DNA from: an uncultured Gammaproteobacteria bacterium
GTDB lineage: Bacteria > Patescibacteriota > Patescibacteriia > 2-01-FULL-39-33
NCBI GenBank assembly: GCA_964558935.1
Contig: CAZLFP010000005.1
Coordinates: forward strand, 20,667-84,666
DNA length: 64,000 nt
Reading direction: 5' to 3'
The notes beneath the pieces were generated by a model. The model was given only the letters and a program-made list of their open reading frames with translations. It was not told the origin of the DNA and made no database searches. A program made the translations under genes and the position numbers. Position 1 is the first letter of the stretch, and each line of letters opens with the position of its first letter. Shown in pieces: positions 15,244-40,992 of this stretch.

Positions 15244-18200
15244 ATGTTTTTAAAACGCCTTTTTCCCGTGCAAAGGTCGTTAAAAACTACCAAAAAAGTA
15301 ATGGCAGTTTGTCTTTTGGTGGTTTTTTTGTTTCTTACCCTGGGCTTGCCAGTGGTTTTAGCGCAAGGTACACCCGGTGATCCGTATGGCTTGCAAGCGA
15401 TTGAGGAAGACACGGTTTTTGCCCCGACTAATTTAATCGTCATTATTGCCAACTTAATTCGAATCTTCCTGGGTTTGTTGGGCATGATTGCGGTGTTGTT
15501 AATGCTGTACGCCGGTTATCTGTGGATGACGGCTGCCGGCAATCCCGAACAGGTTCAGAAAGCTCAGAGAATTATTAAGCAAACGACAGTTGGTATTATC
15601 ATTATCTTATCTGCTTTTGCAATTGTCACTTTTGTCTTGGGTATTTTTGGGGGCGGTACCACCACACCGGGAGAGAGGCCGATTCCCACTCCTCGGCCAC
15701 CTCTAACCCCTTGGGGTATTGGCAAGGGACCGATTGAGGATGTTTATCCTCGACCCGGACAAGATGATGTACCGATTAATACGGCGATTGTAGTCACGTT
15801 TAAGGATGCGATAAATGCAACTACCATTTGTAATGTCACGGGAGATAGTAGTTGTGACGGTGAAATAATGAAGAATGTTGAAATTTGCATGTTAGATGAG
15901 AATAATCAATGTGTGGATTCTGTTCATCCGGAAAATCAGTTTCAGGCTACAAATTTTGCAAATACAACAGTGACACAAACGGGTGACGGACGAACTTTCG
16001 TCTTTAACGTAGCTGCCGGTGGTAAGTATTTGGGTGTGGAAGACGGACGTGAGCGACCTTTCCAGGTAACGCTTAAAAATGGCATTCAAAACACGGCCGG
16101 TGAGGATATTTTCAGCGGTTTAGCCGGCAACCAGTTCGCCTGGAATTTTGAAACCAACGGTAATTTGGATTTGGATCCCCCGGAAATAGTGGCTTTTGAT
16201 CTGTATCCCGGTTTAGATACTGCACAAGATATTTATACAGAAGCCTCTCCCGCCACCAGAGCTCAGACCACTTTAGCTTTTTCTGGGGCACCGCAGGCCA
16301 ACCAAGCCGCCAAAGTGAATGGCGTGCCGTATACGAGTAGTAATTTTAGTCAAACTTTAACTCAAACAACACAGATACCGGGTGCGACTGTTTATTTTAG
16401 AAGTAATGCCGGTTTTAGCATTAACACGGGTGGTACAGATACGGTGACAGTAACGGTGACGGCCGGTAGTGCGACTAACCCTGAGACAGGCATTGCTGAG
16501 CAAGTCGAAATTTCTGTAGCTGGTAGCTTTTTAACGTTAAATGTTAGTAGTAATCGGGTGGTCTTGTCTGAAGGCAATAGTATTTTTTCCGGTGCCTACT
16601 TGGAAGGAAATTTTCAAGCTGGCGGAAGCTGGACTTTTCAGGCCACTCCGGCTGTTCAGGGAGACAGGATAACCATAGATAACGAAGATCGCTTTATTTT
16701 TGTGGAAGCGACTGAAAATCGGTCCAGTCTTCAAATCAATGATCAATCTTACGTGACTGTCAAAGCTACAGACACTGCTGGCAATCCCAGATATTTGGGG
16801 AATTTGGCTGCAGCTATTGCTAATCAAACCAGATTAGCAACTCGTGTAGATGGCAGTAGTGTGGTTGTAACCGCTCCGAATACTGGAGCAGGTGAGATTA
16901 GCGTTAGTCATGATGTTGTAGGTTTAACAGTAACGCCAACTCCAGGCACTGAGCGAGTGATTAACCAGCGAACTGTTGGACAACGAGATTTGCCTAGAAA
17001 CCATTTCTTTCAGATTAATTTCAATGAACCGGTTAACCCTGTATTTTTAGATGGAAACATTATAGTTACCATCAATGGAACTCCAGTTAGTGATGTTAGA
17101 TTGGAGTATTCCAATAATTACAAAACAATTGAAGTCTTACCTCCAGAGACAAACAAATGCGGCGTCAGCAACTGTGGTCGAGATATCTATTGCTGGATTT
17201 TAAGTCCACAACAAGATGCTTACCCGGCTTCAGTGGAAATCAAAGCAGCGGTTTTACAAACCCAAGCAGTTCTCGATGCAAATAATTTATGTTCAGATTG
17301 GGGAGGTTCGGTTGATACTTATGGCAGATGCTCGCGTAAGGTGGATTTGGAGTGTGCTGCCGATTGTGAAATGATCTACTATCCATTAGCCTCCTACACC
17401 GCTCCAGACGGTGTGGTGGACTTGGCTTTTAATTCATTTAACGGCAGTTTCAATACTTATGAGGATTATGATTTGGCTAAGACGGTTGGTATTGCCGAGG
17501 GTCAGTCTTGTGATAATTGCGTGGAAAACAGTAATGATGGAAAATCTGGTCGGAATGCTTATATGTTAAAATACAACCCCAACTACACTCCGTTGACTAA
17601 TAATATGAAAAATGAAAGCGGAGGGAGCGCTTATTACGGAGACAATTTCCAGTGGTCATTTTATATTTCTTCATTACTGGATAAGGAAGCCCCACTGATT
17701 ACTTCTGTGACTCCGTTATTGGGCGGAGAAAGCGATTTTAGAGATGAACCCATTGCTATTAATTTTAACAAAGTTATGCGCAGCCGGACCTTAAGACCTG
17801 GCTGGGATAAAGACACTGAACATCGGTATTTGGTGGTCGAAACGGTTTCAGCCGGTGCCCAATCTTTGGGCTATTGGATTAGTAAGTATAATCTGGATAC
17901 GGATGCGGATGATTTGGCGGATGAGACGCGGGTGGAAATTGAACATACTCCTTATGCAGTGGCTACAGAATATGCCAGTTTAGCCGGGTCTGGTTTGGAG
18001 TCCATTGGTCAGAATTGTTTTAAGCCGGGAGCCGGTCCCAAAGATACCAGTAATAATTGCCAATATAATCCTAGCGGTGGTTTATATCAGGGTTGTGTGG
18101 CGGTGAATGAAAGTAATCCGTCCTCCTATGGCCATTGGAATTGCGCTGATGTGGCTGGCTTGGTGGAAGGTGTTGAAATATGTGCAGCCAATGAAATCTG

Positions 18201-18354
18201 CGAACCGTTTGATGAAACTGGAGATGGTAGCTATGGTGGTAGCTGGATTATTACTTTAGATGCAGGGTGGAGAACAACTAATACCACCTGTAGTGATGAT
18301 ACTGACAGCTGCCAGGGCTGTTGCTTTGGTCGATGTGTGGCCAGTGGATCATAA
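15244..18354 (+). CDS. giant secreted Cys-rich surface protein (1036 aa) with N-terminal VirB2/TrbC-pilin-like membrane hairpin
   Basis: Signal peptide, then two hydrophobic helices flanking a YAGYLWMTAAGNPEQVQKAQ loop (aa about 60-135). Long Thr/Asn/Gly-rich extracellular region ending in the Cys cluster CSDDTDSCQGCCFGRC. Confidence 0.7.
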   Translation: MFLKRLFPVQRSLKTTKKVMAVCLLVVFLFLTLGLPVVLAQGTPGDPYGLQAIEEDTVFAPTNLIVIIANLIRIFLGLLGMIAVLLMLYAGYLWMTAAGNPEQVQKAQRIIKQTTVGIIIILSAFAIVTFVLGIFGGGTTTPGERPIPTPRPPLTPWGIGKGPIEDVYPRPGQDDVPINTAIVVTFKDAINATTICNVTGDSSCDGEIMKNVEICMLDENNQCVDSVHPENQFQATNFANTTVTQTGDGRTFVFNVAAGGKYLGVEDGRERPFQVTLKNGIQNTAGEDIFSGLAGNQFAWNFETNGNLDLDPPEIVAFDLYPGLDTAQDIYTEASPATRAQTTLAFSGAPQANQAAKVNGVPYTSSNFSQTLTQTTQIPGATVYFRSNAGFSINTGGTDTVTVTVTAGSATNPETGIAEQVEISVAGSFLTLNVSSNRVVLSEGNSIFSGAYLEGNFQAGGSWTFQATPAVQGDRITIDNEDRFIFVEATENRSSLQINDQSYVTVKATDTAGNPRYLGNLAAAIANQTRLATRVDGSSVVVTAPNTGAGEISVSHDVVGLTVTPTPGTERVINQRTVGQRDLPRNHFFQINFNEPVNPVFLDGNIIVTINGTPVSDVRLEYSNNYKTIEVLPPETNKCGVSNCGRDIYCWILSPQQDAYPASVEIKAAVLQTQAVLDANNLCSDWGGSVDTYGRCSRKVDLECAADCEMIYYPLASYTAPDGVVDLAFNSFNGSFNTYEDYDLAKTVGIAEGQSCDNCVENSNDGKSGRNAYMLKYNPNYTPLTNNMKNESGGSAYYGDNFQWSFYISSLLDKEAPLITSVTPLLGGESDFRDEPIAINFNKVMRSRTLRPGWDKDTEHRYLVVETVSAGAQSLGYWISKYNLDTDADDLADETRVEIEHTPYAVATEYASLAGSGLESIGQNCFKPGAGPKDTSNNCQYNPSGGLYQGCVAVNESNPSSYGHWNCADVAGLVEGVEICAANEICEPFDETGDGSYGGSWIITLDAGWRTTNTTCSDDTDSCQGCCFGRCVASGS

Positions 18355-18385: not shown

Positions 18386-21300
18386 ATGAAGAGAAGAGGT
18401 GTTAACAATTTATGGAGGCCAATATTTGCCTTGGCAATTATTGGTGTGTTGTTATTCAGCTTGCCTGTTTTGGCCGAAGGAGGTGACGTTGATCCATATG
18501 GTTTAGGTCAAATTGAACAGCAAACGGTTTTTACAGACACCGGCCTGCTTGAGATCATTGCCATGTTGATTAATATCTTCATGGGTTTGTTGGGCATGAT
18601 TGCTGTCATTTTAATGATTTATGCCGGTTATTTATGGATGACGGCCGGGGGTAATCCCGAAAAGGTGGAAAAAGCCAGGATGATTATCCAAAGAGCTGTA
18701 ATTGGCTTAATTATTATTTTTTCGGCTTGGGCGATCGTGACTTTTGTCTTCTATTCCTTGGGCGTGGCAGTCGGTGATGGTGGCAGACAGTCTTGTAATG
18801 AGGAAAATCCTTGTCCGCCCGGTTACCAATGTGTTGATGGCAGATGCAACAGAATACCGGATTACAATTTTAGAACCAGAGAAGGTGAGTTAACTTATAT
18901 TTCCGGTGTGCGATCTCAATCTTTAGACTGGTCCAGATCAACCAGTCGTTATACTAGTTTGGTGCCTGTGCCGCCAACAGCTGATTTCCAGGTCAGAGGC
19001 TATGCTTTTAAACGTAATGAGATAATTGCGCTATTAGCTTTATATGGTGGTTTAGATGAACAGTCTTTAAATAACTTGGGTACTTATCCCATTACCATTT
19101 CTGAAACTCCCAGTACAGAAGTAGAAGAGTGGAGGGGCGTGGATTTGTCTGCTGTGCCAGTTGGTGAAAGCATCTATGTCAAGAATAGGGCTAATTCGCT
19201 TAATCCGGTAAGTGATTTACAGAGTTCTTTTGAATCTGATCTTTTAACTTTACGTGTGATAAATCAGCATTGTTTCAATGGTGTTTTAGATGGTGATGAA
19301 ACAGAAATCGATTGTGGTGGCAGCTGCGGAGCCTGTGCAGGTCAGAGTTGTCGCACTTTAGAGGATGATACTTGCAGTGATGCTAATTGCCGGTCAGGAG
19401 TGTGTGGACCGGATTGTGTTTGTGTAACTGAACCAACCATTGTTTTGGTCGTAGAGGATGACGGCGCTCCCGGTAATTACATTACCATCTATGGTCATCA
19501 TTTTGGTCATGAACAGGGTCAAGTTCATTTTTATACTACCGACGGAACTCTGTCAGCTACAGTAAATTGGACTGCTTTCCCGGACGAGTGTTCAAATACA
19601 TGGCAAACCGGTCATATCATTGCTGTTGTGCCGGCTTTATCTGCAGGTAATTACCAAATAGTGGTTGAGACCAGTGATGGTTTACTGAGTGAGGGTTATG
19701 CATTCGAAGTTAATACGGTTAACAGACCGGGTGTATGTACTATTCAAAACACCACTCTATCTCAACCCGGACAGTTGGTTTACGGTTTTGGTCAATCTGA
19801 AAATGAAGTTAAACTGATTGGCAACCAGTATCCGACCACCGTTGATGGTAATAATGAAGTACAGTGGTTATACCAAACATATAGTCAACAAACAGGTGGG
19901 TATGTAGATGATATCTACAACAGCCCAAGTAATACCTGGTCAACGGTTAATGAAGCCTTCGATGTAGTACCGGTTGGTCAGGATGGTCGGACAGCAGTTA
20001 GGGTATCTTTGGAACCAACCAAAAACAGTAATCCATATCCGTTCTTAATCTCTGCGGGTGGAGTTGGTGATCCATGTGGTGATCCTGAAGAACAGGTCTG
20101 TGCAGCAGCTGAAGTCTGTCAGCCTGGCTTGGTGTGCGATTTTGAGGATTGCACTTGTCAATTGGGTGAAGCTGAAACTTGCGGTAATGGACAAATTGAT
20201 CAAGGTGAGCAGTGCGATAGCTCAGCTGAAGCGATCTACAGTCAATTAGATGATGATAACAATCCGGATTGTTCTTTGTATGGAGATTATTTACCGGGTA
20301 GAAATGTTACCTGTCAGCCAAATTGTACAGTTAATGTCAATCCTTGTTTGCTAGCGTCTTTAGCCGGTAAGCCGTCTCAACACAATATTTATTCCTGGGC
20401 CTTTTTGAATATGTCTGGAACAGATATACCAAGGCCTGGTTTGTGCGGTAACAATATTTTAGATGATGGTGAAGATTGTGAAGATGTGGATGGCAGTCTT
20501 ACGTATCGAGGGGACAGAAGCACATGTCAGGCTTACGGCTTTAACAGTGGTACTTTGGCTTGTTCCAATTGTCAGTTAGACACTCAGAATTGTGAAGGAG
20601 CTTCCATTGGAGATAAGGCTTCTTCCCATGCCATTTACGGTTGGATTATCGGACACACGGGAGATTATAATCCAGGTGAGGAAGAGCCAACAATAGTTGA
20701 AGATTGTACTAGAGAAAGAACCTGCCGACCAGGCGCCAGATTGCCCAGTCCCACCCCTTGGAGTGAAGGCTGGACGTCAGCCACCAATATCAATGTTGAA
20801 AATCCACTGGCCTGTTTAGATGCCATTATTCTAGCTCGCTTTAGTTTGCCCATGGATGTGGATACCATTAATCCGGACAATATTAAAGTGTTAAAGAGAT
20901 TAGCGACTGGTGGTTGGCAAGAAGTTGCAGGTGATGTCGTTGCGGATTTGGATAGTGATAAGATGATTATCGGTAGTGATAACAGTGATATGGATAATGA
21001 TTATTTCAGATTCATTCCTACCACTAATTTAGAGCCTAATGCTTGGTACAAGGTGGTGGTCAGACAAACCGTTGAAAGTTTATCTGGCAGACAGATGAGA
21101 TTAAACCGAGTTGACCAAGCCAGAGTGAATGATCGCGAGTGTAATGTAAATGGCATTACAGATGCGGCTTACTGTTGGAATTTTCAAACTCGTAGTGCCG
21201 GGACATGTAATCCGGGCTGTGTGGAATGTTCACCGGATCCGCATACTATGTATTGGCAAGGTGCTACCACCAAGTATTTAGCTGATGTTGATAGTCAAGA

Positions 21301-24300
21301 TAATGTGTGTCTGTTGCTTAAAACCGGTAATACTGATTGGAATTGGTCTACAGATGATGAACCGACTGATGTTAAAGTTAGTTTGGGTTCGACCAATAAT
21401 TTTTATAACACAGGTACGGCCATTGATGAAAACATTTTTGACTCACCCGGCTATACCAAAATTATTACCCAATTGCGATCTTATACAGGCAAGGAAGATT
21501 TCTGCAGGGCTAGGGTGGATTTCACCAATCCGGTGGTGGTTGAAGATTCTTCCTGTTTGTATGGTAATATCCAAAGTCCTAGTCCTTGGATTAGTTCTGA
21601 TGATGCTTGCTTAAACGCTATGGTGTCAGCGCGTTTTAGTCGGGATATGACTGATGAGACTTTGAATTCTGGGAATATTTTAGTCTACCAATGTTCTGAT
21701 TTTGATTGTGATCTTACCGGCTTAACACCTATGACATACGGCCAAGTTGAAATTTTTCAATATTCTCATGTCTTGGATGACGTGACTGCCCAGCAGATTA
21801 TTGATCTTGGAGAACCGGAAGATGACGAGTTGCCTGAAGGTTTTTATATTCAACCTATAACCGGAGGCAATCCGGACGGCAACTTCAGATTTACACCCAA
21901 TACCTGGTACCGGGTGGTGATTAAAGGAGATACCGAAGGTGTCAGAGGTTCAACCGGCGGTAAGCTATTGAGAACCAATTACGCTCATGATGCTGACGGG
22001 GAAGTAAATGATTACACTTGGAAGTTTAAAACAGCCGGCAATGATTGCCAAGTAGACAGAGTGACAGTTACACCTCAGAAAAGGAGTATGTCAGCTGCTG
22101 GACAGAACCAGATTTACCATGCTTTGTCAGTGGCAGCCAATTGTAATTTGTTGAATTCAGCTTCTTTTAGCTGGGCTTGGAGATCTTTATATGAATTGGA
22201 TGATGACCGAGATGCGAATGATCCTGATTATGGCAATGCCAGTGATGTGGCTAGAGTTTGTCCTTACAACTCCAACGCTTTATGTGATTATACAGCTCTG
22301 ACTTCTGAGCAGAGCAGTTGGTTGACTCGGTCTAAAGTTCGAGTCTTCGGTATAGTTGACAGTGATGTTTATATTAAAGCACGAGCACTGGAGACCGGTC
22401 CTCAGTCAGCAGTTGCCGGCTACAATCCATTGGATCCGGAGATGGGTGATAAGTGGGATTACGGTACTTTGAGAATTGGTTACAGCGATCTTAAGGTCAT
22501 CGGTCATTCACCGGACAGGTTGACTTGCAAGATTCCAACTGCTGGAAATTATTCGGATTATGATATTCGAGTCAGATTTAACATTGACGTTGATACCGGT
22601 TCAATTAAACCCGGTGTTAATACTTTCTTGTATCAATGCGATCCAGAAAATAACGACTGTCATCCGGGGACTGAGCTTCAAACAGTTGATTTAACTCGTC
22701 TTAACACTACTTTGTATGCCAAAGAAATTGTCTTAAATCCTAACCAACAATTATCGCCTTACACCAGCAATACATATCGTTTGTTAATTCAAGGCGGTCC
22801 TAACACAGATCGTCCAATCGCTTTCAATGGCAAACGTCTCATGACTTTCAATTACAACAGTGCCGGCGGAGGTGCCGGTGAAGAGTGTGAACCTGATATT
22901 TTACCCTGGTCAGATTTTAGTGGTGTTTGCAATAATTGTATGTTAGACAGTAGTAAAAATTTATGCACTTATGCCAATGGCAGTTTTGCTGAGTGTCAGA
23001 ATAGTCTGCCCAATTCGTCTTTAGATTATTGTAATGATAAATGTTTTAACACCGGTAATGAGAATCGAGCTGCTTGTGGTGATGATTATGTCAATGTCGG
23101 TTATGAACAATGCGATGATGGCAACATTATTTCCGGTGATGGTTGCAGTAATGTTTGTTTATGGGAAGGAGCCGGTTCAGTAGCTGGCTCGGTCTGTGGT
23201 AATGGTGAACAAGAAGAGGGAGAAGCTTGTGATGATGGAGATCTGGATAATATTAATGAGTGTAACAATAATTGCTTGTTGACTGAAACTCCGGAACCGG
23301 GCTCTTTGCCGTACAGGCAGTGTCGTATTGAAGATAACTTTACAGTCTCACTGGGCGCTAATATTACTCCTCCCGACATTGGCGTGGCTCAACCGTTTGC
23401 TGGCACACCGCTCGACGATTACCGCAGTTATTATGTCAACAGTTCATTGTTTGGTAATAATAGGCATACTCCCTGGGGAGCTAAAATAATTGGCGGCCAG
23501 GTCATGATCGAGGCTCAAGGCAATGAAGGCAGTTCCGCCTTAATGACGGAAACTGAGGTTGACAGTGACCATTATCTTGTTAAAACCCAGATAATCGCCA
23601 ATGGTGCAATCACCAGTACAGATGATATTGGTTTGGCTTTTGGTTACCAAGATGAAAATAATTTTTGGTTGTTGAATTGGGCTGATGTTGGTTATCCTGG
23701 AGACAGAGCAGACACTTACCGCAGATTTAGATTAATCAACCAGTTTGGCCAAGTTGCAATTACTGCCACACCTTTCAATGTTGATGCACCTAATCATAAC
23801 TTTACTCTGTCGGTTGAAGTAATTAATTTTAGCGATGGAGCTCTTATCAAATGCTTTCGAGACAATACTCTACTGTTTAGTCATGAGGTTGACAGACGAG
23901 TGACCGGTCAGGTCGGGTTGTATGCCAGAGATCCGGATACTTCAGTCTTCTTTAATTTCTTAGATATCATTAATTTGGACTCGCAGTCCAACGACTGGTG
24001 TAATACTTTTGTCCAAACCCCAATTTGTGGCAATGGCACGGTTGAAACCGGCGAGGATTGTGATGACGGCAATACGGATTCCGGAGATGGCTGTAGCAGT
24101 AGATGCTTGCATGAGGGTTCTGTGAATGCCGTGTGTGGAGATGGCTTGGTTCAAACCGGCCAGGATGACAGTTATTCCTGGGTCTTTATCGTCGATAATA
24201 CGGAAGAAGCATGCGCTAGTGTTGAACCGGAAATTGTGATGGGACCATGTCCGAATGCTATTTGGAGAATTAAGACTAAGTTAGTTGATGAAAATGGCGT

Positions 24301-26350
24301 TTCAACCGGCATTGAGAGTTTGAATGTTAAAATTGAAGCTTCCAATCTGACTGTTACACACCAAGGTTGGTGGCCTAAGTTTAAGAATTGGTTTTGGGGT
24401 TTGTTTGGTCAATCCGCCGTGGCAGTCGATTATCCAAATCCTTTATTTGACTACACTTTTACTGCCACAGAATTAAGTGGTGATCTGCGCCAAACGCCTT
24501 CCATTTCTGGCAGCAGCGACGAGATATTGGGTTATCGTCAACAGGAAGAAGACGGTAATGTGTACTATGTGTTAAACATTATTCCGGGTCAGAATTGGAC
24601 CATAGATCGTCATTACCGTATTACCACCACAGATCAGGCTGACAATCAAACAGCAGTCGAAACTTATATTGAACCGGATATTTGTTTAATAGATGATCTG
24701 GAAGTCAATGTTTGGCCTAAAGGTCAGCTGGCTTTAGAAGATACATTTTTCTGCGCCGAAGCTTCGGGTTGTGATAGAGATCAGGATACTGCGACACCGG
24801 GTAACCAGCATATTTACCGAATTTGGGCCACCAATGGTAGACTGGGAGACAGAAAATCTTTCCTAAGATCTACTTCAACTTGGGAATTGAGTGTGATTCC
24901 TGATCTAGCTAATGTTTTAACTCGGCAAGATGCGAGTGCCACGACTTACCAAGGCGATCACTGGATTACGGCACAGGGTAGAACAGGAGGGCGAGCTTCC
25001 TTAAGAGTGACTGCCGGCAATCCTCAAACCAATGATGATGATTACACTCAGTCCATATATTTATTAGTCTTCCTATGTGACAATCCTTGGCCAGATCCAG
25101 ATAATTTCCCTTTCATTGACAGTGATAATAACTGTACCGGAGGTGACTGCGTTAACACCAATTTTTCCTTAGGCTATTGCCGTGATGCCGGCGAGCCTGG
25201 TTTTGCCGATGATCTGCCCAGATTGGATGAAAATGTCAGAGTTGTGGGTATGAATCCTGATTTAAATATTGTTAAGCAGATGTTCTTCCAAAAAATGGAT
25301 GATTCAGTTAATCCAGCAGTTGCCACTGGGGATACCATTGGCCTGAGAGTAATTAACAACAATAATTACTATAATCCAAGAACCTGGTTTGTCTCTCAGT
25401 TCAACCAAGATCCGGGTGCCATGTCGACCATAGATGGTTACCAATCCGTTGCTCAAGGTCCGACCAGCTATATTCACGCTGCAGATTTGGTGAATAATTG
25501 GAATACTGAAAAAAAGGCATACAGCACTAATTATGTTTTAACTTATACTCAGACCGGGGATGAAGACATTGTTAATATCTATAACCAGATGTTGAATAAT
25601 TTATTTTTCAATTACGGTATTCCAGAACAAGGTGGCTTGCCCACCATGGGTAGTTGTAAAGGCACTAGCTTTGCTTGTTGGTCTGATGCTGATTGCGACA
25701 GTCTGGGTCCCAACGCCTATTGTACTTCAGATAAAGCCAAGTTAACTCGAGATTTAAGAAGATTGGCAGATATGCAGGATATTGATTTAAGCTTGATGCA
25801 GTATAAGTCAGTTGAGCGTTGTTCCGGTTTGCCAACCAGATTGTGCGATAACCAAGATGATTGTGAGGGTTATGGTATGTGCGGCAATTTCTATCCATTG
25901 TTGCCCTCCGGCACTTATGTTCCAGCCAGAAGTATTTCAGTTTGGCCATCGTGGCAGGCAACTTTGGGTAATGCGCTGGGCAGGGCTTTGCCGGTTGACC
26001 CGATTAACCAATTCAGTGGCTGCAGTAGTCCGTATGAGGCGCAAACTTGTTGGGCTGAAAGTCTGAAGTCTTTTAATTGTTCAGCTGTTGCAACAGCTCT
26101 TGCTAATCAGTCAACCTATAATTACATTTATTTGTCTTCCAGACCGGATGAGACCACCTTGTCTAATGTTAGGTATTTATTGGCCAATAATGAGTTCTAT
26201 CCGAATTACAATACTTTGTGGCAGTCATTACCTCTAAACTTACGCAACTATACTGATATAGTGACTCATACTTTATTTACAGATTATGGTGCTTTCTTTA
26301 TTGATGACATCAATGGTACCTTTAACTGTGCCCGCGATTTAAGTTTATAA
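18386..26350 (+). CDS. giant secreted surface protein (2654 aa): pilin-like hairpin, at least 6 Myxococcus-type Cys-rich repeats, LamG/ConA-like domain
   Basis: N-terminal domain paralogous to the preceding gene (about 60% identity over about 100 aa). Repeats of form CGNGxxxxGExCDDGNxxxGDGCSxxC at several sites. LamG-like segment (DHYLVKTQI...FWLLNWADVGYPGDR...). Confidence 0.75.
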   Translation: MKRRGVNNLWRPIFALAIIGVLLFSLPVLAEGGDVDPYGLGQIEQQTVFTDTGLLEIIAMLINIFMGLLGMIAVILMIYAGYLWMTAGGNPEKVEKARMIIQRAVIGLIIIFSAWAIVTFVFYSLGVAVGDGGRQSCNEENPCPPGYQCVDGRCNRIPDYNFRTREGELTYISGVRSQSLDWSRSTSRYTSLVPVPPTADFQVRGYAFKRNEIIALLALYGGLDEQSLNNLGTYPITISETPSTEVEEWRGVDLSAVPVGESIYVKNRANSLNPVSDLQSSFESDLLTLRVINQHCFNGVLDGDETEIDCGGSCGACAGQSCRTLEDDTCSDANCRSGVCGPDCVCVTEPTIVLVVEDDGAPGNYITIYGHHFGHEQGQVHFYTTDGTLSATVNWTAFPDECSNTWQTGHIIAVVPALSAGNYQIVVETSDGLLSEGYAFEVNTVNRPGVCTIQNTTLSQPGQLVYGFGQSENEVKLIGNQYPTTVDGNNEVQWLYQTYSQQTGGYVDDIYNSPSNTWSTVNEAFDVVPVGQDGRTAVRVSLEPTKNSNPYPFLISAGGVGDPCGDPEEQVCAAAEVCQPGLVCDFEDCTCQLGEAETCGNGQIDQGEQCDSSAEAIYSQLDDDNNPDCSLYGDYLPGRNVTCQPNCTVNVNPCLLASLAGKPSQHNIYSWAFLNMSGTDIPRPGLCGNNILDDGEDCEDVDGSLTYRGDRSTCQAYGFNSGTLACSNCQLDTQNCEGASIGDKASSHAIYGWIIGHTGDYNPGEEEPTIVEDCTRERTCRPGARLPSPTPWSEGWTSATNINVENPLACLDAIILARFSLPMDVDTINPDNIKVLKRLATGGWQEVAGDVVADLDSDKMIIGSDNSDMDNDYFRFIPTTNLEPNAWYKVVVRQTVESLSGRQMRLNRVDQARVNDRECNVNGITDAAYCWNFQTRSAGTCNPGCVECSPDPHTMYWQGATTKYLADVDSQDNVCLLLKTGNTDWNWSTDDEPTDVKVSLGSTNNFYNTGTAIDENIFDSPGYTKIITQLRSYTGKEDFCRARVDFTNPVVVEDSSCLYGNIQSPSPWISSDDACLNAMVSARFSRDMTDETLNSGNILVYQCSDFDCDLTGLTPMTYGQVEIFQYSHVLDDVTAQQIIDLGEPEDDELPEGFYIQPITGGNPDGNFRFTPNTWYRVVIKGDTEGVRGSTGGKLLRTNYAHDADGEVNDYTWKFKTAGNDCQVDRVTVTPQKRSMSAAGQNQIYHALSVAANCNLLNSASFSWAWRSLYELDDDRDANDPDYGNASDVARVCPYNSNALCDYTALTSEQSSWLTRSKVRVFGIVDSDVYIKARALETGPQSAVAGYNPLDPEMGDKWDYGTLRIGYSDLKVIGHSPDRLTCKIPTAGNYSDYDIRVRFNIDVDTGSIKPGVNTFLYQCDPENNDCHPGTELQTVDLTRLNTTLYAKEIVLNPNQQLSPYTSNTYRLLIQGGPNTDRPIAFNGKRLMTFNYNSAGGGAGEECEPDILPWSDFSGVCNNCMLDSSKNLCTYANGSFAECQNSLPNSSLDYCNDKCFNTGNENRAACGDDYVNVGYEQCDDGNIISGDGCSNVCLWEGAGSVAGSVCGNGEQEEGEACDDGDLDNINECNNNCLLTETPEPGSLPYRQCRIEDNFTVSLGANITPPDIGVAQPFAGTPLDDYRSYYVNSSLFGNNRHTPWGAKIIGGQVMIEAQGNEGSSALMTETEVDSDHYLVKTQIIANGAITSTDDIGLAFGYQDENNFWLLNWADVGYPGDRADTYRRFRLINQFGQVAITATPFNVDAPNHNFTLSVEVINFSDGALIKCFRDNTLLFSHEVDRRVTGQVGLYARDPDTSVFFNFLDIINLDSQSNDWCNTFVQTPICGNGTVETGEDCDDGNTDSGDGCSSRCLHEGSVNAVCGDGLVQTGQDDSYSWVFIVDNTEEACASVEPEIVMGPCPNAIWRIKTKLVDENGVSTGIESLNVKIEASNLTVTHQGWWPKFKNWFWGLFGQSAVAVDYPNPLFDYTFTATELSGDLRQTPSISGSSDEILGYRQQEEDGNVYYVLNIIPGQNWTIDRHYRITTTDQADNQTAVETYIEPDICLIDDLEVNVWPKGQLALEDTFFCAEASGCDRDQDTATPGNQHIYRIWATNGRLGDRKSFLRSTSTWELSVIPDLANVLTRQDASATTYQGDHWITAQGRTGGRASLRVTAGNPQTNDDDYTQSIYLLVFLCDNPWPDPDNFPFIDSDNNCTGGDCVNTNFSLGYCRDAGEPGFADDLPRLDENVRVVGMNPDLNIVKQMFFQKMDDSVNPAVATGDTIGLRVINNNNYYNPRTWFVSQFNQDPGAMSTIDGYQSVAQGPTSYIHAADLVNNWNTEKKAYSTNYVLTYTQTGDEDIVNIYNQMLNNLFFNYGIPEQGGLPTMGSCKGTSFACWSDADCDSLGPNAYCTSDKAKLTRDLRRLADMQDIDLSLMQYKSVERCSGLPTRLCDNQDDCEGYGMCGNFYPLLPSGTYVPARSISVWPSWQATLGNALGRALPVDPINQFSGCSSPYEAQTCWAESLKSFNCSAVATALANQSTYNYIYLSSRPDETTLSNVRYLLANNEFYPNYNTLWQSLPLNLRNYTDIVTHTLFTDYGAFFIDDINGTFNCARDLSL

Positions 26351-26373: not shown

Positions 26374-27564
26374 ATGTTTGACGATCAAATGAAGAATCAG
26401 CCAGATAAAACAGGCCAACCACCAGCTGATTTACCTAAGGTGGAAGATATTTTTGCTGACTCAGAAACAAAAGCACAATCCAGCAGTCCTTTTAAGCCAG
26501 TACAGCCTCCCACGCAGCCACCAGCTCAGTCTGGTCAAGTTCAACCAACTCAGCCTGCAAAAAGTGCAGTAGATCAAATGCCTGACGGTATCAGTCAAGC
26601 CGAATTGTTTGGAGGTCGTTCAATTTTGGAAAATAAAGTGCTAGTGGCTGCTATGCTGGTCATTGCGGCTGTGGTTGTTGGTACCCTGGTCTGGTTTGGT
26701 TATGTGTGGTTTACCAATCGGACAATAGAGCCAGTTCCCGAGCCAAGTTCACAAACGGTTGTTACAACTGAACCCTCAGTCATTCCCCAGCCTGAACCAG
26801 CCCCTGCTCCCACTCCAGAACCAGAGCCGGAACCAGTTATGGCTAAAGACAGTGATTTTGATGGATTAACAGATGACCAAGAGAGAGATTTAGGTACAGA
26901 TCATTTGAAAGCAGATTCAGACGGAGATGGTTTAATCGATTACGCTGAGGTAAATATTTATCTAAGCAATCCTCTGGATGTGGATACGGATGATGACGGG
27001 TATAATGATGGTAAAGAGGTGACTAATGGCTTTGATCCAACCAGGCCGGGTAATGCTTTACTGCCTGCTTTTGACCAGAATGGCAATTTAAAACCTTTAC
27101 CGATTCCAACTCCTGATGAACCAGATTACAACGTTTTTAGTAATGAAACGTACAGTATCTATTTTGAATATCCCAAAGACTGGCCAACACCAAAGTTGGA
27201 AGTTAAACAGTTTAAAGATACTTATCCTACCATGCCAACCAATTGGTATTTGGTGACTGGTCCAGACTTGGAATGTCAGGATGAAGGTTGTATTCTAACC
27301 AGATTATACATCAATGTTTATCCTAAACTGGATTATTTGCGAGCCATAGATGATTTAAACAATATGCAGTTTGTGTCCGAAGTGTCTGAAGGTAATGTTA
27401 ACGGCATGCAAACAATTTCTTACAAAGAATCCGGAATGGCCGGGTCTAAGAAGACTATGATTTTTGGACCTAATTATTCTTTAGTGCTTAACACTTCGAT
27501 GCTGAACATAGATGATCGTTTTGATGCGTATATGCAAATTATTAATTCTCTTAATTTAAATTAG
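26374..27564 (+). CDS. single-pass membrane protein with Pro-rich linker and TSP3-like Asp-rich Ca-binding repeats
   Basis: Cytoplasmic Pro/Gln-rich N terminus; one TM ([24 protein letters not shown]); [15 protein letters not shown] linker; [12 protein letters not shown]...[12 protein letters not shown]...[12 protein letters not shown] repeats; C-terminal globular domain. Confidence 0.6.
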
Positions 27565-27569
27565 TAAGT

Positions 27570-28961
27570 ATGGATGACAATAACCAACAACCCAAACCAC
27601 AGCCAAACAATGTTGAGGATCTAATAAAGCAGCCGAGTACTAAGTCGGATGTGTATGTCATGCCAGAGAAATTCCATCCTAAACAAGCGCAGTCATCGAA
27701 TAAAGGCTTAATCATATCCATTGTAGTACTACTCTTGGTCATGCTGCTTAGTGGTACTTATTTAATCTATGTTTATGTAGTTCAACCTCAAATGCAGACT
27801 CAACCGGTGCAAGTCGTTCAGCCTACTCCTGAACCGGAACCGGAACCTGAACCGGAACCGGAACCGGAACCGGAACCTGAACCGGAACCGGAGCCTGAAC
27901 CGGAACCGGAACCGGAGCCTGAACCGGAACCAGCTCCTAAACCAACCGGTGAAATTACTGCCAGTCAAGATTCAGATCAAGACGGTTTAACTGATCCAGA
28001 AGAAGTTCTTTTCACCACTGATCCCAATTTGCCAGATACTGATGGTGATGGCTATTTGGACGGTACTGAAGTTACCAATGGTTTTAGTCCGTCTCAAGCC
28101 GGAGGAAGTCAGGCAGACATGTTGCCAGCCATGCCATATATCACTCAGGTGGAAACTAATTTCAGTAAAAATAATCTCAAATTATATTATTTTAAAGATT
28201 GGCAAATGAATCTATTTCCGGATAATTACGAGATTAGATTGACGATCCCAACTACAGGTGAAATGATAAAGGTGACAGTTAGATCTAATCCAGATAATTT
28301 GTCAGCCACCAATTGGTATTTAACCAACAATTCTTCAGTTACTTTAAGTCAGTTAACACGTATTGAAACAGATGAGTTAACCGGCATTTATTCACCGGAT
28401 AAGACTGAGGTCTATTTAACCGATGAAGACAGACAGAAATTCTATATCTTTGAATACCAGATAATGGATGACAGCAAGGAGCTGAGATATCCCAATATTT
28501 TAAGATACATGATAAAGAATTTAGAGATTGTAGCGGATGAGACTCAATCCGTGCCTGCTGTTGAACAAGTAGAATTAGATTTAGCTTTTGATAAATTTTT
28601 TAAAGATTGGATTGTTGCTTGGAATGACCGAGACGTAGAAACGCTGGTTAACATTTATGGCTATGGTGAAAGTCAGATTGAGGCGACAGAGGACAAGGCG
28701 ATTTGGCAGTACCAAAAGTATGAATTGTACCAAAATGAGGTGACTGAGTCACAGGGTAATTTTGACATTAAAGCGTATTATGTAGTGACTGATAATGACG
28801 GACAGTTTCAGATTTTGATTGTTAACGGTGGATATCTGGAGGATGGCAGCTCAGCCTATATTGGATCATGGCAGGTATATCCGAGTGAAGGCAGTCCGAT
28901 GTCGATTTTTGATTCTCAAGCGGCAGCTGAGCAGAAGATTGATGATTTAATCTCCTTATGA
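27570..28961 (+). CDS. paralogous single-pass membrane protein with (Pro-Glu)n linker and TSP3-like repeats
   Basis: Same architecture as 26374-27564: TM ([24 protein letters not shown]), (PE)~18, [12 protein letters not shown]...[13 protein letters not shown], distinct C-terminal domain. Confidence 0.6.
27829..27937 (+). repeat. in-frame hexanucleotide tandem repeat (cc[tg]ga[ag])~18 encoding (Pro-Glu)n
   Basis: Directly visible near-perfect GAACCG/GAGCCT tandem units inside the CDS. Confidence 0.9.
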
Positions 28962-33350: not shown

Positions 33351-33489
33351 TATGAATATATCTCTACTGGCCTTAATGTTTGTGGTAAGGACTTGAATTA
33401 GAATTTATCTAAATATTTCTGTTTCAAGTCTATTTTTTTCTGATATTTTTTGGCCATCTCAGGTGACTAACTATTTTCTCATTCATTAT

Positions 33490-35535
33490 ATGGAGACGCA
33501 AATCAAACAAGTACGCAAACGTGATGGCAGTATTATTGATTTTGAGCAAACTAAAATTACTCAGGCCATTTACAAGGCCTTACAAGCTGTTGGCAGAGAT
33601 GACCAGGAATTGGCGACAAAGTTATCCAATGAAGTCGTGCAGGTTATTAACAGCAAATTCCATCCCAGGTCAATTCCAGCCATTGAAGAAATTCAGGATG
33701 CGGTGGAAGAAACTCTGATTAAGGACGGACTGGTTAAAGCAGCTAAATCTTATATCATCTACCGGGAGCAACATGCTCAGTTGCGAGACATGAAGAAGTT
33801 GATTAATTCCCATGATATTATTGACGGCTATTTAAAACAGTTGGATTGGAGAGTTAAAGAAAATGCCAACATGGCCTATTCTCTGCAAGGCCTTAACAAC
33901 CATGTGGCTTCAGCTATTAGTTCCCATTATTGGTTAAATAAGATTTATCCGCCGGAAATCAGGGATGCTCATATAGATGGAGCATTGCATCTGCATGATT
34001 TGCAGATTTTAGCGGTCTATTGCTGTGGTTGGGATTTGCAGGCATTGCTCAGAGTTGGTTTTGGGGGAGTTGACGGCAAGATTCATTCCAAACCGGCCAA
34101 GCATTTTTCCGTGGCTTTGGGTCAGATTGTGAATTATTTCTATACCTTGCAAGGCGAAGCAGCCGGTGCTCAAGCTTTTGCCAACTTCGATACCTTGCTG
34201 GCTCCTTTTATTCGTCAGGATGGTTTAAATTACGAAAAGGTGAAACAAAATTTGCAAGCCTTTGTATTTAATATCAATGTACCGACCAGAGTCGGCTTTC
34301 AAACCCCTTTTACCAATTTAACTTTTGATTTAGCCTGTCCTTCCACCTTGGCCAATGAACCGGTGGTGATCGGAGGTATTCCCCAAAAAGAAACCTACAA
34401 AGAATTTCAGCCGGAAATGGATATGATTAACAAAGCTTTTGCGGAAGTCATGATGGCCGGCGATGCCAAGGGCAGGGTTTTTACCTTTCCCATTCCTACT
34501 TACAACATTTCCAAGGATTTTGATTGGAATAACAAGGTTTTGGATCCGGTTTGGGAAATGACTGCCAAGTACGGCATACCCTATTTTGCCAATTTCATCA
34601 ACAGCGATATGTCAGCGGATGACGCCAGATCCATGTGCTGTCGTCTGAGATTGGATAACCGGGAACTCAGAAAAAGAGGCGGCGGTTTGTTTGGAGCTAA
34701 TCCTTTGACCGGCTCGGTCGGTGTGGCGACTATTAATCTGCCCAGAATTGGTTATACATCCAAAACTCAGGAAGCTTTTTTTAATCGTTTGGGTCAGGTG
34801 ATGGATTTGGCTCGAGACAGTTTGAAATTGAAGAGAGAAATCCTGGAGAATTTTACCCAGCAGGGCTTGTATCCGTATTCCAAGTATTATCTCAGCGATA
34901 TTTATGAACGTTTTGGCCAGTACTGGAGAAATCATTTCAATACCATTGGGATTATCGGTATGAATGAAACTTTGTTGAACTACATGAACAGGCCATTAAG
35001 CACTCAAGAAGGTCAAGATTTTGCCGTACAAGTCATGGATTATATGTTAAAGAGATTGGCTAAGTACCAAGAAGAAGATGACCAGTTATATAATTTGGAA
35101 GCTACGCCGGCTGAAGGTGCAACTTACCGTTTTGCCAAGAAAGACAAAGAATTGTATCCAGATATTATTGTGGCCAACAATGAGGCCTACCAAGAGAGGG
35201 GAGCTGCTCCGTATTACACCAATTCCACTCATTTGCCGGTTAATTATTCCAATGACCTGTTTGAAGTTTTGGAAAAACAGGATCCTTTGCAAGTTAAATA
35301 CACCGGGGGTACTGTGGTGCATGGTTTCTTGGCTGAGAGGATGCCGGATATTGAAAGTACCAAAATGTTGGTTAAAAAGATTGCTGAGAATTTTCATTTA
35401 CCTTATTACACTCTAACTCCCACTTTCTCGATCTGTCCCAAGCATGGTTATTTGCCGGGAGAGCATGAATTCTGTCCTTATTGCGACGAGGAAATAGGAT
35501 ATGTGCGTCAGCAAGATGAAAAATTGCCATTATAA
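33490..35535 (+). CDS. nrdD: anaerobic ribonucleoside-triphosphate reductase (class III), large chain lacking the glycyl-radical segment
   Basis: N-terminal ATP-cone (VRKRDGSIIDFEQTKITQAIYKA); class III RNR core; C-terminal CPKHG...CPYC half of the Zn ribbon; ends at TAA 35533-35535. The ORF is open from 33463. Confidence 0.85.
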   Translation: METQIKQVRKRDGSIIDFEQTKITQAIYKALQAVGRDDQELATKLSNEVVQVINSKFHPRSIPAIEEIQDAVEETLIKDGLVKAAKSYIIYREQHAQLRDMKKLINSHDIIDGYLKQLDWRVKENANMAYSLQGLNNHVASAISSHYWLNKIYPPEIRDAHIDGALHLHDLQILAVYCCGWDLQALLRVGFGGVDGKIHSKPAKHFSVALGQIVNYFYTLQGEAAGAQAFANFDTLLAPFIRQDGLNYEKVKQNLQAFVFNINVPTRVGFQTPFTNLTFDLACPSTLANEPVVIGGIPQKETYKEFQPEMDMINKAFAEVMMAGDAKGRVFTFPIPTYNISKDFDWNNKVLDPVWEMTAKYGIPYFANFINSDMSADDARSMCCRLRLDNRELRKRGGGLFGANPLTGSVGVATINLPRIGYTSKTQEAFFNRLGQVMDLARDSLKLKREILENFTQQGLYPYSKYYLSDIYERFGQYWRNHFNTIGIIGMNETLLNYMNRPLSTQEGQDFAVQVMDYMLKRLAKYQEEDDQLYNLEATPAEGATYRFAKKDKELYPDIIVANNEAYQERGAAPYYTNSTHLPVNYSNDLFEVLEKQDPLQVKYTGGTVVHGFLAERMPDIESTKMLVKKIAENFHLPYYTLTPTFSICPKHGYLPGEHEFCPYCDEEIGYVRQQDEKLPL

Positions 35536-35550
35536 ATAAAAAAAATACAC

Positions 35551-35706
35551 ATGGAAGGTGAATTAAATTCTAAACGTCAGCGGTGTGAAGTTTGGTCTCG
35601 TGTGACTGGTTATTTAAGGCCGGTCAGCGGATATAATCCAGGCAAACAAGCTGAATATTACAGTCGTAAGAAATATGCAGTCAGTAAGGATTGCGGTTCA
35701 GTCTAA
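35551..35706 (+). CDS. 51-aa ORF encoding the NrdD glycyl-radical domain (RVTGY motif), in frame with nrdD after a TAA stop
   Basis: Translation MEGELNSKRQRCEVWSRVTGYLRPVSGYNPGKQAEYYSRKKYAVSKDCGSV matches the class III RNR C-terminal Gly-radical consensus. Same frame as nrdD, 15 nt downstream of its stop. Confidence 0.6.
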   Translation: MEGELNSKRQRCEVWSRVTGYLRPVSGYNPGKQAEYYSRKKYAVSKDCGSV

Positions 35707-35708
35707 AC

Positions 35709-36404
35709 ATGAAAATCGGCGGTTTACAACCAGTAACTCTATTGGATTATCCTCAAAAGGTGGCAGCAATTGTATTCACATCCGGATGCAATCTACGCTG
35801 CCCTTTTTGTTATAATCCGTCTTTGGTCTTGCCACAGCTGATCAAAAAAAGCAATTTACTGGCTGACACAGAGCTGTTTAAGTTCTTAAAGAAAAGACGT
35901 AATTTTTTGGACGGACTGGTTATTACCGGAGGAGAACCGACTGTTCAGACGGATCTGGTGGATTTTTGTCAGCGAGTTAAAAAACTGGGTTATGCCATTA
36001 AATTAGATACAAATGGATTTTCTCCTCAGATACTGGATGAATTAATCAAAAACCGGTTAATAGACTATATTGCCATGGATATAAAAGCGCCTTTATCCAG
36101 ATACGCTGAAGTTTGCGGAGTTAAAGTCAGGACAGACGACATTCAGTCCAGTTTGGAGATTATCAAACACTCACAATTGCCGTACGAGTTTAGAAGCACT
36201 CTAGTCAAGGGATTGCATCGCAAAGCAGACATTATTCGGATGGCCAAGCTAGCTCAAGATGCCCCCAAGTATTATCTGCAAAATTTTAATTATCAAAGCC
36301 GGTTGGTTAAACCAGATTTTGCCGGCAAGTTCTTTACCCATCAAGAGATGGAAAACATGCGTCAGATTGTGTTGAAGTTTGTTTCAGATTGCCAGATTCG
36401 CTAA
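35709..36404 (+). CDS. nrdG: anaerobic RNR activating protein (radical SAM)
   Basis: Radical-SAM cluster GCNLRCPFCYN typical of NrdG/PflA activases; immediately downstream of nrdD. Confidence 0.85.
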   Translation: MKIGGLQPVTLLDYPQKVAAIVFTSGCNLRCPFCYNPSLVLPQLIKKSNLLADTELFKFLKKRRNFLDGLVITGGEPTVQTDLVDFCQRVKKLGYAIKLDTNGFSPQILDELIKNRLIDYIAMDIKAPLSRYAEVCGVKVRTDDIQSSLEIIKHSQLPYEFRSTLVKGLHRKADIIRMAKLAQDAPKYYLQNFNYQSRLVKPDFAGKFFTHQEMENMRQIVLKFVSDCQIR

Positions 36405-40098: not shown

Positions 40099-40104
40099 TA
40101 TAAT

Positions 40105-40992
40105 ATGAAGATGAGCAACAGAATTAAAATATTATTTGTCACTCTTTTTGTCATTAGTTCAGTCTGCTTAGCTGCCTATTGGCAGTCAACCAGGCTGACT
40201 TGGTCGGTTAAAGGTGTGGACGATACTCTGGAAGGCAAACTTTTGGTTCATTTTTTAGATGTCGGACAGGGAGATGCCATTCTAATCCAAACACCCTGTG
40301 GTCAAGACATTTTAATCGATGGAGGAGCGGACAATACCTTACTAGCCGGTTTGAGTCAGCATCTGTCATTTTTCAACCGGGATATTGAACTGATGATTCT
40401 AACTCATCCCCATTCTGACCATGTAGCCGGTTTAGTGGAAGTTTTGGATAGATACGAGGTGGACAAAGTTTTAACGACCGGAGTTGAATATGGCTCACCG
40501 GATTATGTAGCTTGGTTGGAGAAAATCGCAGACAAAGACATACCGGTTGAGATCGTAGATAGCCCCAGGAACATATTATTTAGTGAGGTTAGACTGGAAG
40601 TTTTGTTTCCAGACAGGTCGTTTAACGGTCAAGAAGTGGCTAATGTCAATGATGTTTCCATTGTGACCAGGATTGTGTATCTGGAAACAGAAATCCTATT
40701 AACCGGAGATTATGAGGAAGAAGAGACGTTGTTAAACAAAGATTTTGATTTACGGTCAGACATTTACAAAGCCGGTCATCATGGGTCCAACAATGCGAAT
40801 GATTATGAATTTGTTCAGGCTGTGGATCCGGATTACGTAATTATTTCTTGTGGACAGGATAATTCCTTTGGCCACCCTCATTACCGGGCAATGAAGAATT
40901 TTGAGTCAGTTGGCGCTCAGATTTTAAGAACAGACCAGGATGGCAGTGTCACGTTTATATCCGACGGACAGCACTTGTCTGTTAAGCCTTAA
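40105..40992 (+). CDS. ComEC-associated metallo-beta-lactamase domain protein, as a separate ORF
   Basis: N-terminal TM anchor; MBL motif LTHPHSDH and GHHGS, as in the C-terminal domain of full-length ComEC. Confidence 0.75.
   Translation: MKMSNRIKILFVTLFVISSVCLAAYWQSTRLTWSVKGVDDTLEGKLLVHFLDVGQGDAILIQTPCGQDILIDGGADNTLLAGLSQHLSFFNRDIELMILTHPHSDHVAGLVEVLDRYEVDKVLTTGVEYGSPDYVAWLEKIADKDIPVEIVDSPRNILFSEVRLEVLFPDRSFNGQEVANVNDVSIVTRIVYLETEILLTGDYEEEETLLNKDFDLRSDIYKAGHHGSNNANDYEFVQAVDPDYVIISCGQDNSFGHPHYRAMKNFESVGAQILRTDQDGSVTFISDGQHLSVKP

Follow-up and report, generated by a model that had tools for sequence, protein, structure and literature searches.

The 64-kb window analysed here (the whole stretch of DNA, 64,000 nucleotides (nt) of contig CAZLFP010000005.1) contains an uninterrupted open reading frame (ORF) of 2654 amino acids (aa) at 18386..26350 on the + strand, which confirms the ORF given in a preliminary description of this DNA. 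Its product, called the giant protein below, is most likely a cysteine-rich surface protein of an ultra-small patescibacterium, with a pilin-like hairpin as its anchor and a lectin-like domain. It is a member of a catalogued yet uncharacterised family and is ordinary for Patescibacteria. The preliminary description had dealt with cysteine-rich repeats and a lectin-like stretch; features beyond it are the N-terminal hairpin, its twin encoded by the upstream gene, a C-terminal module (C-module) conserved in the family, and the operon context.

The mature protein has a mass of about 288 kDa and a pI of 4.2, and 99 cysteines (3.7%) were counted in the 2654 aa. An identical protein is recorded from an NCBI assembly. 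Hydropathy analysis showed hydrophobic segments at aa 8–35, 51–89, and 97–130 and no others in the protein, and neither an LPXTG motif nor a C-terminal transmembrane (TM) segment was found in it. Self-BLAST of the protein for internal repeats returned none at E < 1e-3, because the repeated domains are too diverged.

The first hydrophobic segment belongs to a predicted Sec signal peptide (aa 1–30, 18386..18475, + strand) with a putative cleavage site at LPVLA/EGG. It is followed by a VirB2/TrbC-like pilin hairpin (aa ~31–130, 18476..18775, + strand) with two hydrophobic helices and the basic loop WMTAGGNPEKVEKAR. This is the layout of a pilin, a signal peptide and then two hydrophobic helices with a short basic loop (TAGGNPEKVEKAR) between them. 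The loop is rich in Lys and Arg, and the sequence after the hairpin is rich in cysteine. Pfam family PF18895 (T4SS_pilin, for pilins of the type IV secretion system, T4SS) matched aa 53–121 with 43.6 bits against a gathering score of 26.6. TrbC (PF04956, 15.4 bits vs 27.9) and NF045849 (35.3 vs 40) stayed below their cut-offs. A comparison of the hairpin with PDB sequences gave a single match to a designed protein, which was judged to be chance. In the accepted VirB2/TraA topology both ends lie outside and the loop lies inside; therefore, everything after residue ~130 would be extracellular, a placement that fits the 99 cysteines and the pI of 4.2.

The hairpin alone found 192 proteins in a database search, and the 120 listed were stand-alone pilins of 66–163 aa with 39–63% identity. 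Two of these small pilins were looked up, and their genes lay in tandem arrays with five and six members. A consensus from 117 hairpins of giant proteins and one from 114 small pilins had the same residue at 59 of 91 columns, inter-helix loop included, and the conserved loop WMTAGGN.E.V.KAKKI was common to both groups. Small pilin arrays of 2–11 genes have been described in Patescibacteria by Quinonero-Coronel et al. 2025 (PMC12102498). The giant protein shares with these VirB2-like pilins the signal peptide, the two-helix hairpin, the conserved loop, and a score above the Pfam gathering score. It differs from them in that its hairpin carries an ectodomain of ~2,500 aa; moreover, the small pilin genes often lie near virB4 (PMC12102498), whereas the giant gene lies in a conserved cassette beside ftsA/ftsZ. 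A T4SS pilin is expected to be small (about 70–160 aa), with its gene among T4SS genes or within a pilin array; the giant protein, with 2654 aa, does not fit this description. In the literature, no description was found of VirB2-like hairpins fused to giant ectodomains, the candidate phyla radiation included.

A second hairpin of the same kind was observed on the upstream partner gene (15244..18354, + strand). Its 1036-aa product has a signal peptide and a VirB2-like hairpin (PF18895, 32.5 bits), followed by Big_5-like (30 bits) and Cys-rich C-terminal regions. The two hairpins showed 55% identity over 138 aa, and there was no other similarity between the proteins. We compared both hairpins in 21 genomes with the adjacent pair (loci L001, L003, and L004 among them). 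Within a genome, the median identity of the upstream and the giant hairpin was 64%. Between genomes, it was 47% for upstream–upstream, giant–giant, and upstream–giant pairings alike; therefore, there is no orthology signal, and the partners track each other. Recent gene conversion between the hairpin-coding segments of the window (15244–15700 and 18386–18780) was not supported, as the third-codon-position identity was 41% and the same codon was used at 39 of 76 identical residues, compared with 32.4 expected from codon usage. The co-variation reflects either old conversion or selection of both hairpins for a common partner. No paper on it was found.

Cysteine-rich repeats and the concanavalin-A-like domain

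The preliminary description had quoted six copies of a Myxococcus-type cysteine-rich repeat. All six motifs are present as quoted, at aa 599, 687, 1564, 1604, 1881, and 1917. With the NCBIfam model TIGR02232 (cut-off 20.8), the whole protein reached 57.5 bits, in four stretches, so the protein is a member and the Myxococcus-type character of the repeats stands. Scanned singly, only three copies passed the same cut-off (aa 1564, 47.1 bits; aa 1604, 22.8 bits; aa 1881, 48.1 bits). The aa 599 copy was slightly under it with 19.3 bits over profile positions 1–16 of 38, and the copies at aa 687 and aa 1917 showed no match. Pfam DUF4215 (PF13948), the other profile named for the check, narrowly failed with 26.4 bits against a gathering score of 27; PF13948 is listed in the precomputed annotation (later Pfam version) of the identical protein. 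A regular expression for the shared head, CG[ND][GDN]...G[EQY]..C[DE], matched the giant protein 5 times, compared with an average of 0.00015 matches per shuffle when the protein was shuffled 20,000 times; therefore, the repeats are far above chance.

The protein has three full four-Cys repeats (C-x10/11-C-x10-C-x3-C) and three 'head-only' copies rather than six full repeats. The head-only copies keep just the CGNGxxxxGExC head, with a Y[SG]W.[FI] strand motif after each, and are parts of longer, different units. Two of them are long-form repeats (aa 599–680 and 687–760, 20180..20665, + strand) with differing Cys-rich tails that end in IY[SG]W; the 19.3-bit half match belongs to the first. Two canonical TIGR02232 acidic repeats follow at aa 1564–1591 and 1604–1630 (23075..23275, + strand). 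The third canonical repeat (aa 1881–1907) is accompanied by a truncated head (aa 1917–1928, CGDGLVQTGQDD) that leads into SYSWVF (24026..24169, + strand). Compared with Myxococcus-type cysteine-rich acidic repeat proteins, the giant protein shares the four-Cys pattern in its three repeats above the TIGR02232 cut-off. It differs from them in having just three full copies and narrowly missing DUF4215, and its host protein, anchor, and context are unrelated to the myxobacterial ones.

A TIGR02232 repeat head of the form CGNGxxExGExCD (PICGNGTVETGEDCDDG, window 23183–24100, aa ~1872–1900) aligned weakly (E 0.007–0.03) to the start of the ADAM10 disintegrin domain and to pappalysin-2. Beyond the ADAM10 head, no solved structure matched the repeats.

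A β-sandwich is inserted between the repeats at aa 1669–1868 (23390..23989, + strand). With an alignment of its concanavalin-A (ConA)-like relatives as input, AlphaFold2 (AF2) predicted 14 strands with a predicted local distance difference test (pLDDT) score mostly of 70–95. Foldseek against the PDB matched the model with probability 1.00 and E values of 5e-9 to 1e-6 (1yo8, 2rhp, 3fby, 4b1m, ERGIC-53, and VIP36). The fold matches comprised the C-terminal L-lectin-like domains of thrombospondin-2, thrombospondin-1, and COMP, as well as CBM66, ERGIC-53, VIP36, and legume lectins. The predicted structure thus has the fold of the concanavalin-A-like lectin/glucanase superfamily, and in the model the nearest folds are L-lectin, thrombospondin C-terminal (TSP_C), and CBM66 rather than laminin G. 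The Laminin_G families of Pfam gave no match at E ≤ 1 on the whole protein and none at E ≤ 10 on aa 1630–1882. The ConA/LamG-like stretch that had been placed at aa ~1700–1870 is thus borne out by AF2 and Foldseek in its position and superfamily, but not as a match to laminin G itself.

Sequence relatives of this domain were few. The isolated aa 1630–1882 segment gave just a weak TSP_C match in Pfam (14.8 bits), and a word-index homologue search limited to the ConA-like region had no hits and missed even the parent protein. Only 37 relatives at E < 1e-3 emerged when 1.84 billion representatives were searched exhaustively with phmmer. Segments of these relatives matched PF06439 (3-keto-disaccharide hydrolase/DUF1080), one at 53 bits and above the gathering score, and TSP_C and Laminin_G_3 below threshold; by Pfam clan, we take all three to be concanavalin-A-like families. 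The insert was covered by 1–5 of 119 homologues of the giant protein and is nearly private, and only a few relatives (P0122, P0123, P0126) hold a ConA-like domain between repeats in the same way. Judged from the modelled fold, glycan binding by this domain is plausible.

The protein family and its gene cassette

At E < 1e-5 the giant protein had at least 134 homologues, nearly all of them Patescibacteria proteins of 2000–4500 aa, in Buchanan-, Falkow-, Uhr-, Komeili-, and Magasanikbacteria. In the preliminary description the repeats were unexpected in a minimal genome, a view that did not survive these homologues and their syntenic cassette. PF18895, TIG, and Big_5 were common to the homologues, while DUF4215, Laminin_G_3, vWA, and FG-GAP were variable; PF13948/DUF4215 was read from the table in about 44 of the 120 homologues listed. 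JGI or NCBI had given several of them the name 'cysteine-rich repeat protein' or 'LamG-like jellyroll fold domain-containing protein', and 'IPT/TIG domain-containing' is another database name of the family. A coverage map of 119 homologues showed that the constant parts are the hairpin, the Cys knot with TIG, the Big_5 core, the repeat blocks, and the C-module. The giant protein has the PF18895 N-terminus, the Cys knot and TIG, the Big_5 core, and the C-module, together with DUF4215/TIGR02232 repeats and the same locus. It differs from the family in three respects. It is shorter (2654 aa vs 3000–4500 aa in most), it stops ~75 aa past the C-module where most relatives run 500–1500 aa further, and it has the rare ConA-like insert between its repeats.

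The Cys-rich knot (HCFNGxxDGDETxxDCGGSCGAC..., aa 296–345, 19271..19420, + strand) was covered by ~100 of 119 homologues and had no profile match. An IPT/TIG Ig-like domain lies next to it (aa 360–441, 19463..19708, + strand; PF01833, 24.7 bits vs gathering score 20.9). The first Big_5 (SbsA-type) Ig-like domain (aa ~780–935, 20723..21190, + strand; SPTPW...ARFS...CWNFQT) scored 35.9 bits with PF13205 over aa 812–903 against a gathering score of 23.6. A second Big_5-like domain (aa ~1055–1218, 21548..22039, + strand; SPSPW...ARFS...TWKFKT) scored 14.7 bits, below threshold, but it has the motifs of domain 1 and was covered by ~95 of 119 homologues. A possible third one (aa ~1370–1490, 22493..22855, + strand) is weakly supported by a sub-threshold score of 13.3 bits and VRFN at aa 1396.

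The C-module (aa ~2200–2580, 24983..26125, + strand; LCDNPWP...YCRD...KAKLTRD...SVWPSWQATLG...LPVDPIN...TCW) defines the family and was covered by ~99 of 119 homologues, which places it among the most widely conserved parts. Its alignment has 18 invariant columns, in which C, P, G, and W predominate and Y, D, R, and N make up the rest; His, Ser, and Glu are not among them. AF2 modelled it with a predicted TM-score of 0.73. There was no PDB fold match below E 1e-3 in Foldseek, no PDB sequence at E ≤ 10, and no Pfam family. A type IV pilin or pseudopilin (GspG-like) head had been suspected from KAKLTRD...YP.L.SGTY...LP.DP.N, and this was not supported. The best Foldseek match was BT_1490 (E 2.7e-3, TM-score 0.17), and a weak T2SSG match (E 0.034) was seen in just 2 of 26 family members.

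Two genes follow the giant gene on the + strand. Downstream gene 1 (396 aa, 26374..27564) encodes a cytoplasmic tail, one TM helix, a Pro-rich linker, thrombospondin type-3 (TSP3) Ca-binding repeats (PF18884 TSP3_bac, 43.7 bits), and a C-terminal domain. Downstream gene 2 (463 aa, 27570..28961) encodes a tail, a TM helix, a (PE)n linker, TSP3-like DxDxDG repeats, and a C-terminal domain. It is a paralogue of gene 1 (BLASTP E 2e-10), and both products are bitopic membrane proteins. From yqeY through ybeY the gaps between the genes were 15, 31, 23, 5, and −4 nt. A consensus scan found no intergenic terminator-like site on the + strand, and its best promoter-like site was only before ftsA. LytR_cpsA_psr and signal peptidase I genes lie upstream of the cassette in the window.

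The same neighbourhood was observed around relatives with 26–42% identity to the giant protein, in the order LytR, signal peptidase I, HisRS, YqeY, hairpin protein, giant hairpin protein, TSP3 protein, second membrane protein, YbeY, FtsA, and FtsZ; the syntenic counterpart of the 1036-aa upstream gene is present there. For the synteny scan, the peptide pattern [ST][FYI]S[VA]WPSWQ was used with one genome per GTDB species and gave 83 relatives. Downstream genes in the same orientation were counted at the 56 species-representative loci whose downstream sequence extended over at least 8 kb. The TSP3 protein was found in 46 of them, the second membrane protein in 45, YbeY and FtsA in 39 each, and FtsZ in 36. 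The cassette YqeY-[two hairpin proteins]-[two TSP3 proteins]-YbeY-FtsA-FtsZ is kept across Buchanan-, Falkow-, Kerfeld-, and Kuenenbacteria, and the giant gene has all of its elements: a second hairpin protein upstream, TSP3 proteins downstream, and the frame from yqeY to ybeY-ftsA-ftsZ. We found no paper on the four-gene cassette.

One of the close counterparts in known proteins is the signature domain of thrombospondins and COMP. The C-terminal domains of thrombospondin-2, thrombospondin-1, and COMP were the best structural matches of the ConA-like domain, which also had the weak TSP_C profile match, and type-3 repeats are present in the two downstream genes. The sequence identity, however, was 11–12%, and here the TSP3 repeats and the lectin-like domain are on separate polypeptides. 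This is a resemblance only, and common descent is nowhere indicated. The parts of the signature domain are split across adjacent genes, with the lectin-like part in the giant protein and the TSP3 part in the downstream pair.

Many of the species-representative metagenome-assembled genomes (MAGs) that bear the cassette (e.g., L008, L009, L014, and L037) are titled 'uncultured Gammaproteobacteria bacterium', and one is titled 'Sideroxydans sp.'. One such MAG is a complete chromosome of 1.0 Mb (OZ246408.1). Given the gene content, these titles look like mislabels.

Possible functions of the giant protein

We consider it somewhat probable, a little above an even chance, that the giant protein is a hairpin-anchored adhesin of a surface complex with its hairpin partner and the two TSP3 proteins. 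It would be an acidic, disulfide-rich cell-surface protein of an ABY1-type (Buchananbacteria-like) patescibacterium. After Sec export and cleavage of the signal peptide, the VirB2-like two-helix hairpin would hold it in the cytoplasmic membrane, with the basic loop facing inward and both ends outward, and the remaining ~2,500 residues would project from the cell. The projecting part would run through the Cys knot, the TIG domain, two long Cys repeats, two or three Big_5 domains, the TIGR02232 repeats that flank the lectin-like sandwich, a β-rich stalk, and the C-module. The protein may act with three presumably co-transcribed neighbours, the 1036-aa protein with the matching hairpin and the two bitopic TSP3-repeat proteins, and the four could assemble on the cell surface into an adhesion complex for contact with a host cell or a substrate. 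Ligand specificity, probably for glycan, would come from the variable inserts, in this protein the ConA-like domain, and the conserved hairpin and C-module would serve assembly. In favour of this reading are the PF18895 match, the confinement of all hydrophobic segments to the first 130 residues, domains of extracellular type (TIG, Big_5, TIGR02232, and the lectin-like sandwich), the conserved architecture and cassette of the family, and the co-varying partner hairpins; exposure at the surface, complex formation, adhesion, and glycan binding are inferred from these observations.

In monoderm bacteria, giant adhesins are attached through LPXTG/sortase or C-terminal anchors. The giant protein differs from them by its N-terminal VirB2-like hairpin, with neither LPXTG nor a C-terminal TM segment, and it relies on many cysteines rather than on isopeptide or ester cross-links. 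It resembles the 7651-aa adhesin of Mobiluncus mulieris (PMC10619420), SasG (PMC4458895), and PrgB in its great size, its repetitive and acidic sequence, its many Ig-like domains, and the probable projection of a binding domain away from the cell.

Several points weigh against the adhesin explanation. The identity of the hairpin to the stand-alone pilins listed, with the same loop, suggests from sequence comparison that it is more than a passive anchor. The ConA-like domain had no profile match above threshold. The structure prediction proposed in the preliminary description succeeded for the lectin-like sandwich, but AF2 modelled the TIGR02232 repeats at pLDDT < 50, and therefore no statement on their disulfide topology is possible. 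The C-module is without structural analogue, so its role is a guess. Co-transcription of the cassette is deduced from gene spacing and consensus scans, and no paper was found that describes any family member.

The likeness to the small PF18895 pilins, which stand in arrays of five to six genes, would be explained if the giant protein were a true component of a T4SS pilus. The T4SS would then pull its hairpin out of the membrane and incorporate it into the pilus, either at the tip or base or rarely among the small pilins. Through the 2,500-aa ectodomain, acting as an adhesin on the pilus, host recognition would be coupled to the essential T4SS, and the upstream 1036-aa protein would be a second such subunit. 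The agreement of the hairpin consensuses, loop included, and the co-variation of the partner hairpins within genomes, as expected for the same filament lattice or machinery, point in the same direction. The T4SS and its pilin array are essential in Ca. Southlakia epibionticum, the one species tested (PMC10633639), and the phylum-wide patescibacterial survey detected no adhesins such as PrgB, the T4SS adhesin of Gram-positive conjugation (PMC12102498). On the other hand, no VirB4, VirB6, VirD4, or small pilin gene was found in the 64-kb window or beside the cassette in relatives. The T4SS loci of ABY1 are reported to lie near comF, recG, and radA (PMC12102498), not near ftsA/ftsZ, and a VirB2-type helical filament would hardly have room for a 288-kDa extension other than at its end. 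A pilus component is the main rival explanation, possible but not probable. We likewise regard as doubtful the fuller proposal that the giant protein and its 1036-aa neighbour are VirB2-like pilins with acquired huge ectodomains, which co-assemble as pilus-borne T4SS adhesins with the small array pilins and supply the host recognition missed by T4SS surveys; if it were true, co-assembly with the small array pilins would be the reason for the tracking of hairpins within genomes.

A structural role in the envelope, as an S-layer-like or cell-wall scaffold tied to envelope growth and division and not to host adhesion, would account for the fixed place between LytR/signal peptidase and ftsA/ftsZ, which is kept across lineages. 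Big_5 is the Ig-like domain type of the S-layer protein SbsA, and TSP3 repeats bind Ca2+, like many S-layer proteins. However, in streamlined genomes a conserved place beside housekeeping genes does not have to reflect a common function, ftsA is set apart from the cassette by a promoter-like site, and no self-assembly domain was recognised in the giant protein. Its inserts vary strongly among relatives (LamG, vWA, FG-GAP, and ConA-like), which is typical of host-facing adhesins and not of lattice proteins, so this role appears unlikely. The PF06439 matches of the ConA-like relatives and the similarity of the fold to CBM66 and likewise to an alginate lyase (Foldseek) could also be read as signs of a secreted or surface-bound polysaccharide-degrading enzyme or a toxin delivery protein, with the ConA-like domain as its catalytic or substrate-binding part. 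This is very unlikely. No catalytic family was found anywhere in the 2654 aa at E ≤ 1 with Pfam and NCBIfam, the domain of the giant protein itself reached no PF06439 score, and the invariant residues of the C-module lack His, Ser, and Glu. The insert is moreover absent from nearly all relatives and so is not the core activity of the family. Least credible, and hardly to be entertained, is the view implied by the preliminary description, a foreign acquisition of the repeat region from a myxobacterial source that does not belong in a minimal genome. Myxococcus proteins were the basis of the TIGR02232 model (myxo_disulf_rpt), but TIGR02232-type repeats occupy the same relative position in many patescibacterial homologues, the G+C content of the giant gene (0.42–0.44) is similar to its surroundings, and the gene and its neighbours are syntenic across the four lineages named above. 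Synteny and the like G+C content indicate that the giant gene was probably inherited vertically and not imported from myxobacteria.

Patescibacteria account for a large share of bacterial diversity, and the few that have been cultivated live attached to other cells. Their means of host recognition and attachment are largely unexplained. One large group (Buchanan-, Falkow-, Kerfeld-, and Kuenenbacteria and relatives) devotes ~1.4% of a ~1-Mb genome to the four-gene cassette, whose two largest products have a T4SS pilin hairpin fused to adhesin-like ectodomains. If the hairpin links these proteins to a pilus, the cassette would be a concrete candidate for a host-contact apparatus. Even as a mere anchor, the hairpin would represent a way of displaying proteins at the surface that has not been described for giant adhesins. 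The lectin-like domain and other variable inserts would be natural candidates for host-range determinants.

Other genes of the window

A 109-aa ORF in another frame (21285–21614, + strand) is fully contained in the giant gene; the mechanical ORF list is its only source, and it shows no sign of being a gene. A few kb downstream of ftsZ, the window encodes the anaerobic ribonucleotide reductase NrdD, with an ATP-cone, and its radical-SAM activase (33463–36404), in the same order as in two relatives (L001 and L005). This pair points to an anaerobic lifestyle, despite the 99 cysteines of the putatively extracellular giant protein. A ComEC-type competence channel (DUF4131 and Competence) and then a metallo-beta-lactamase-fold protein were found at 38743–40992; ComEC is the DNA-uptake system discussed for Patescibacteria. 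The start of the window cuts a membrane H+-pyrophosphatase gene (32–1039), for which profile positions 317–645 of 645 were matched.

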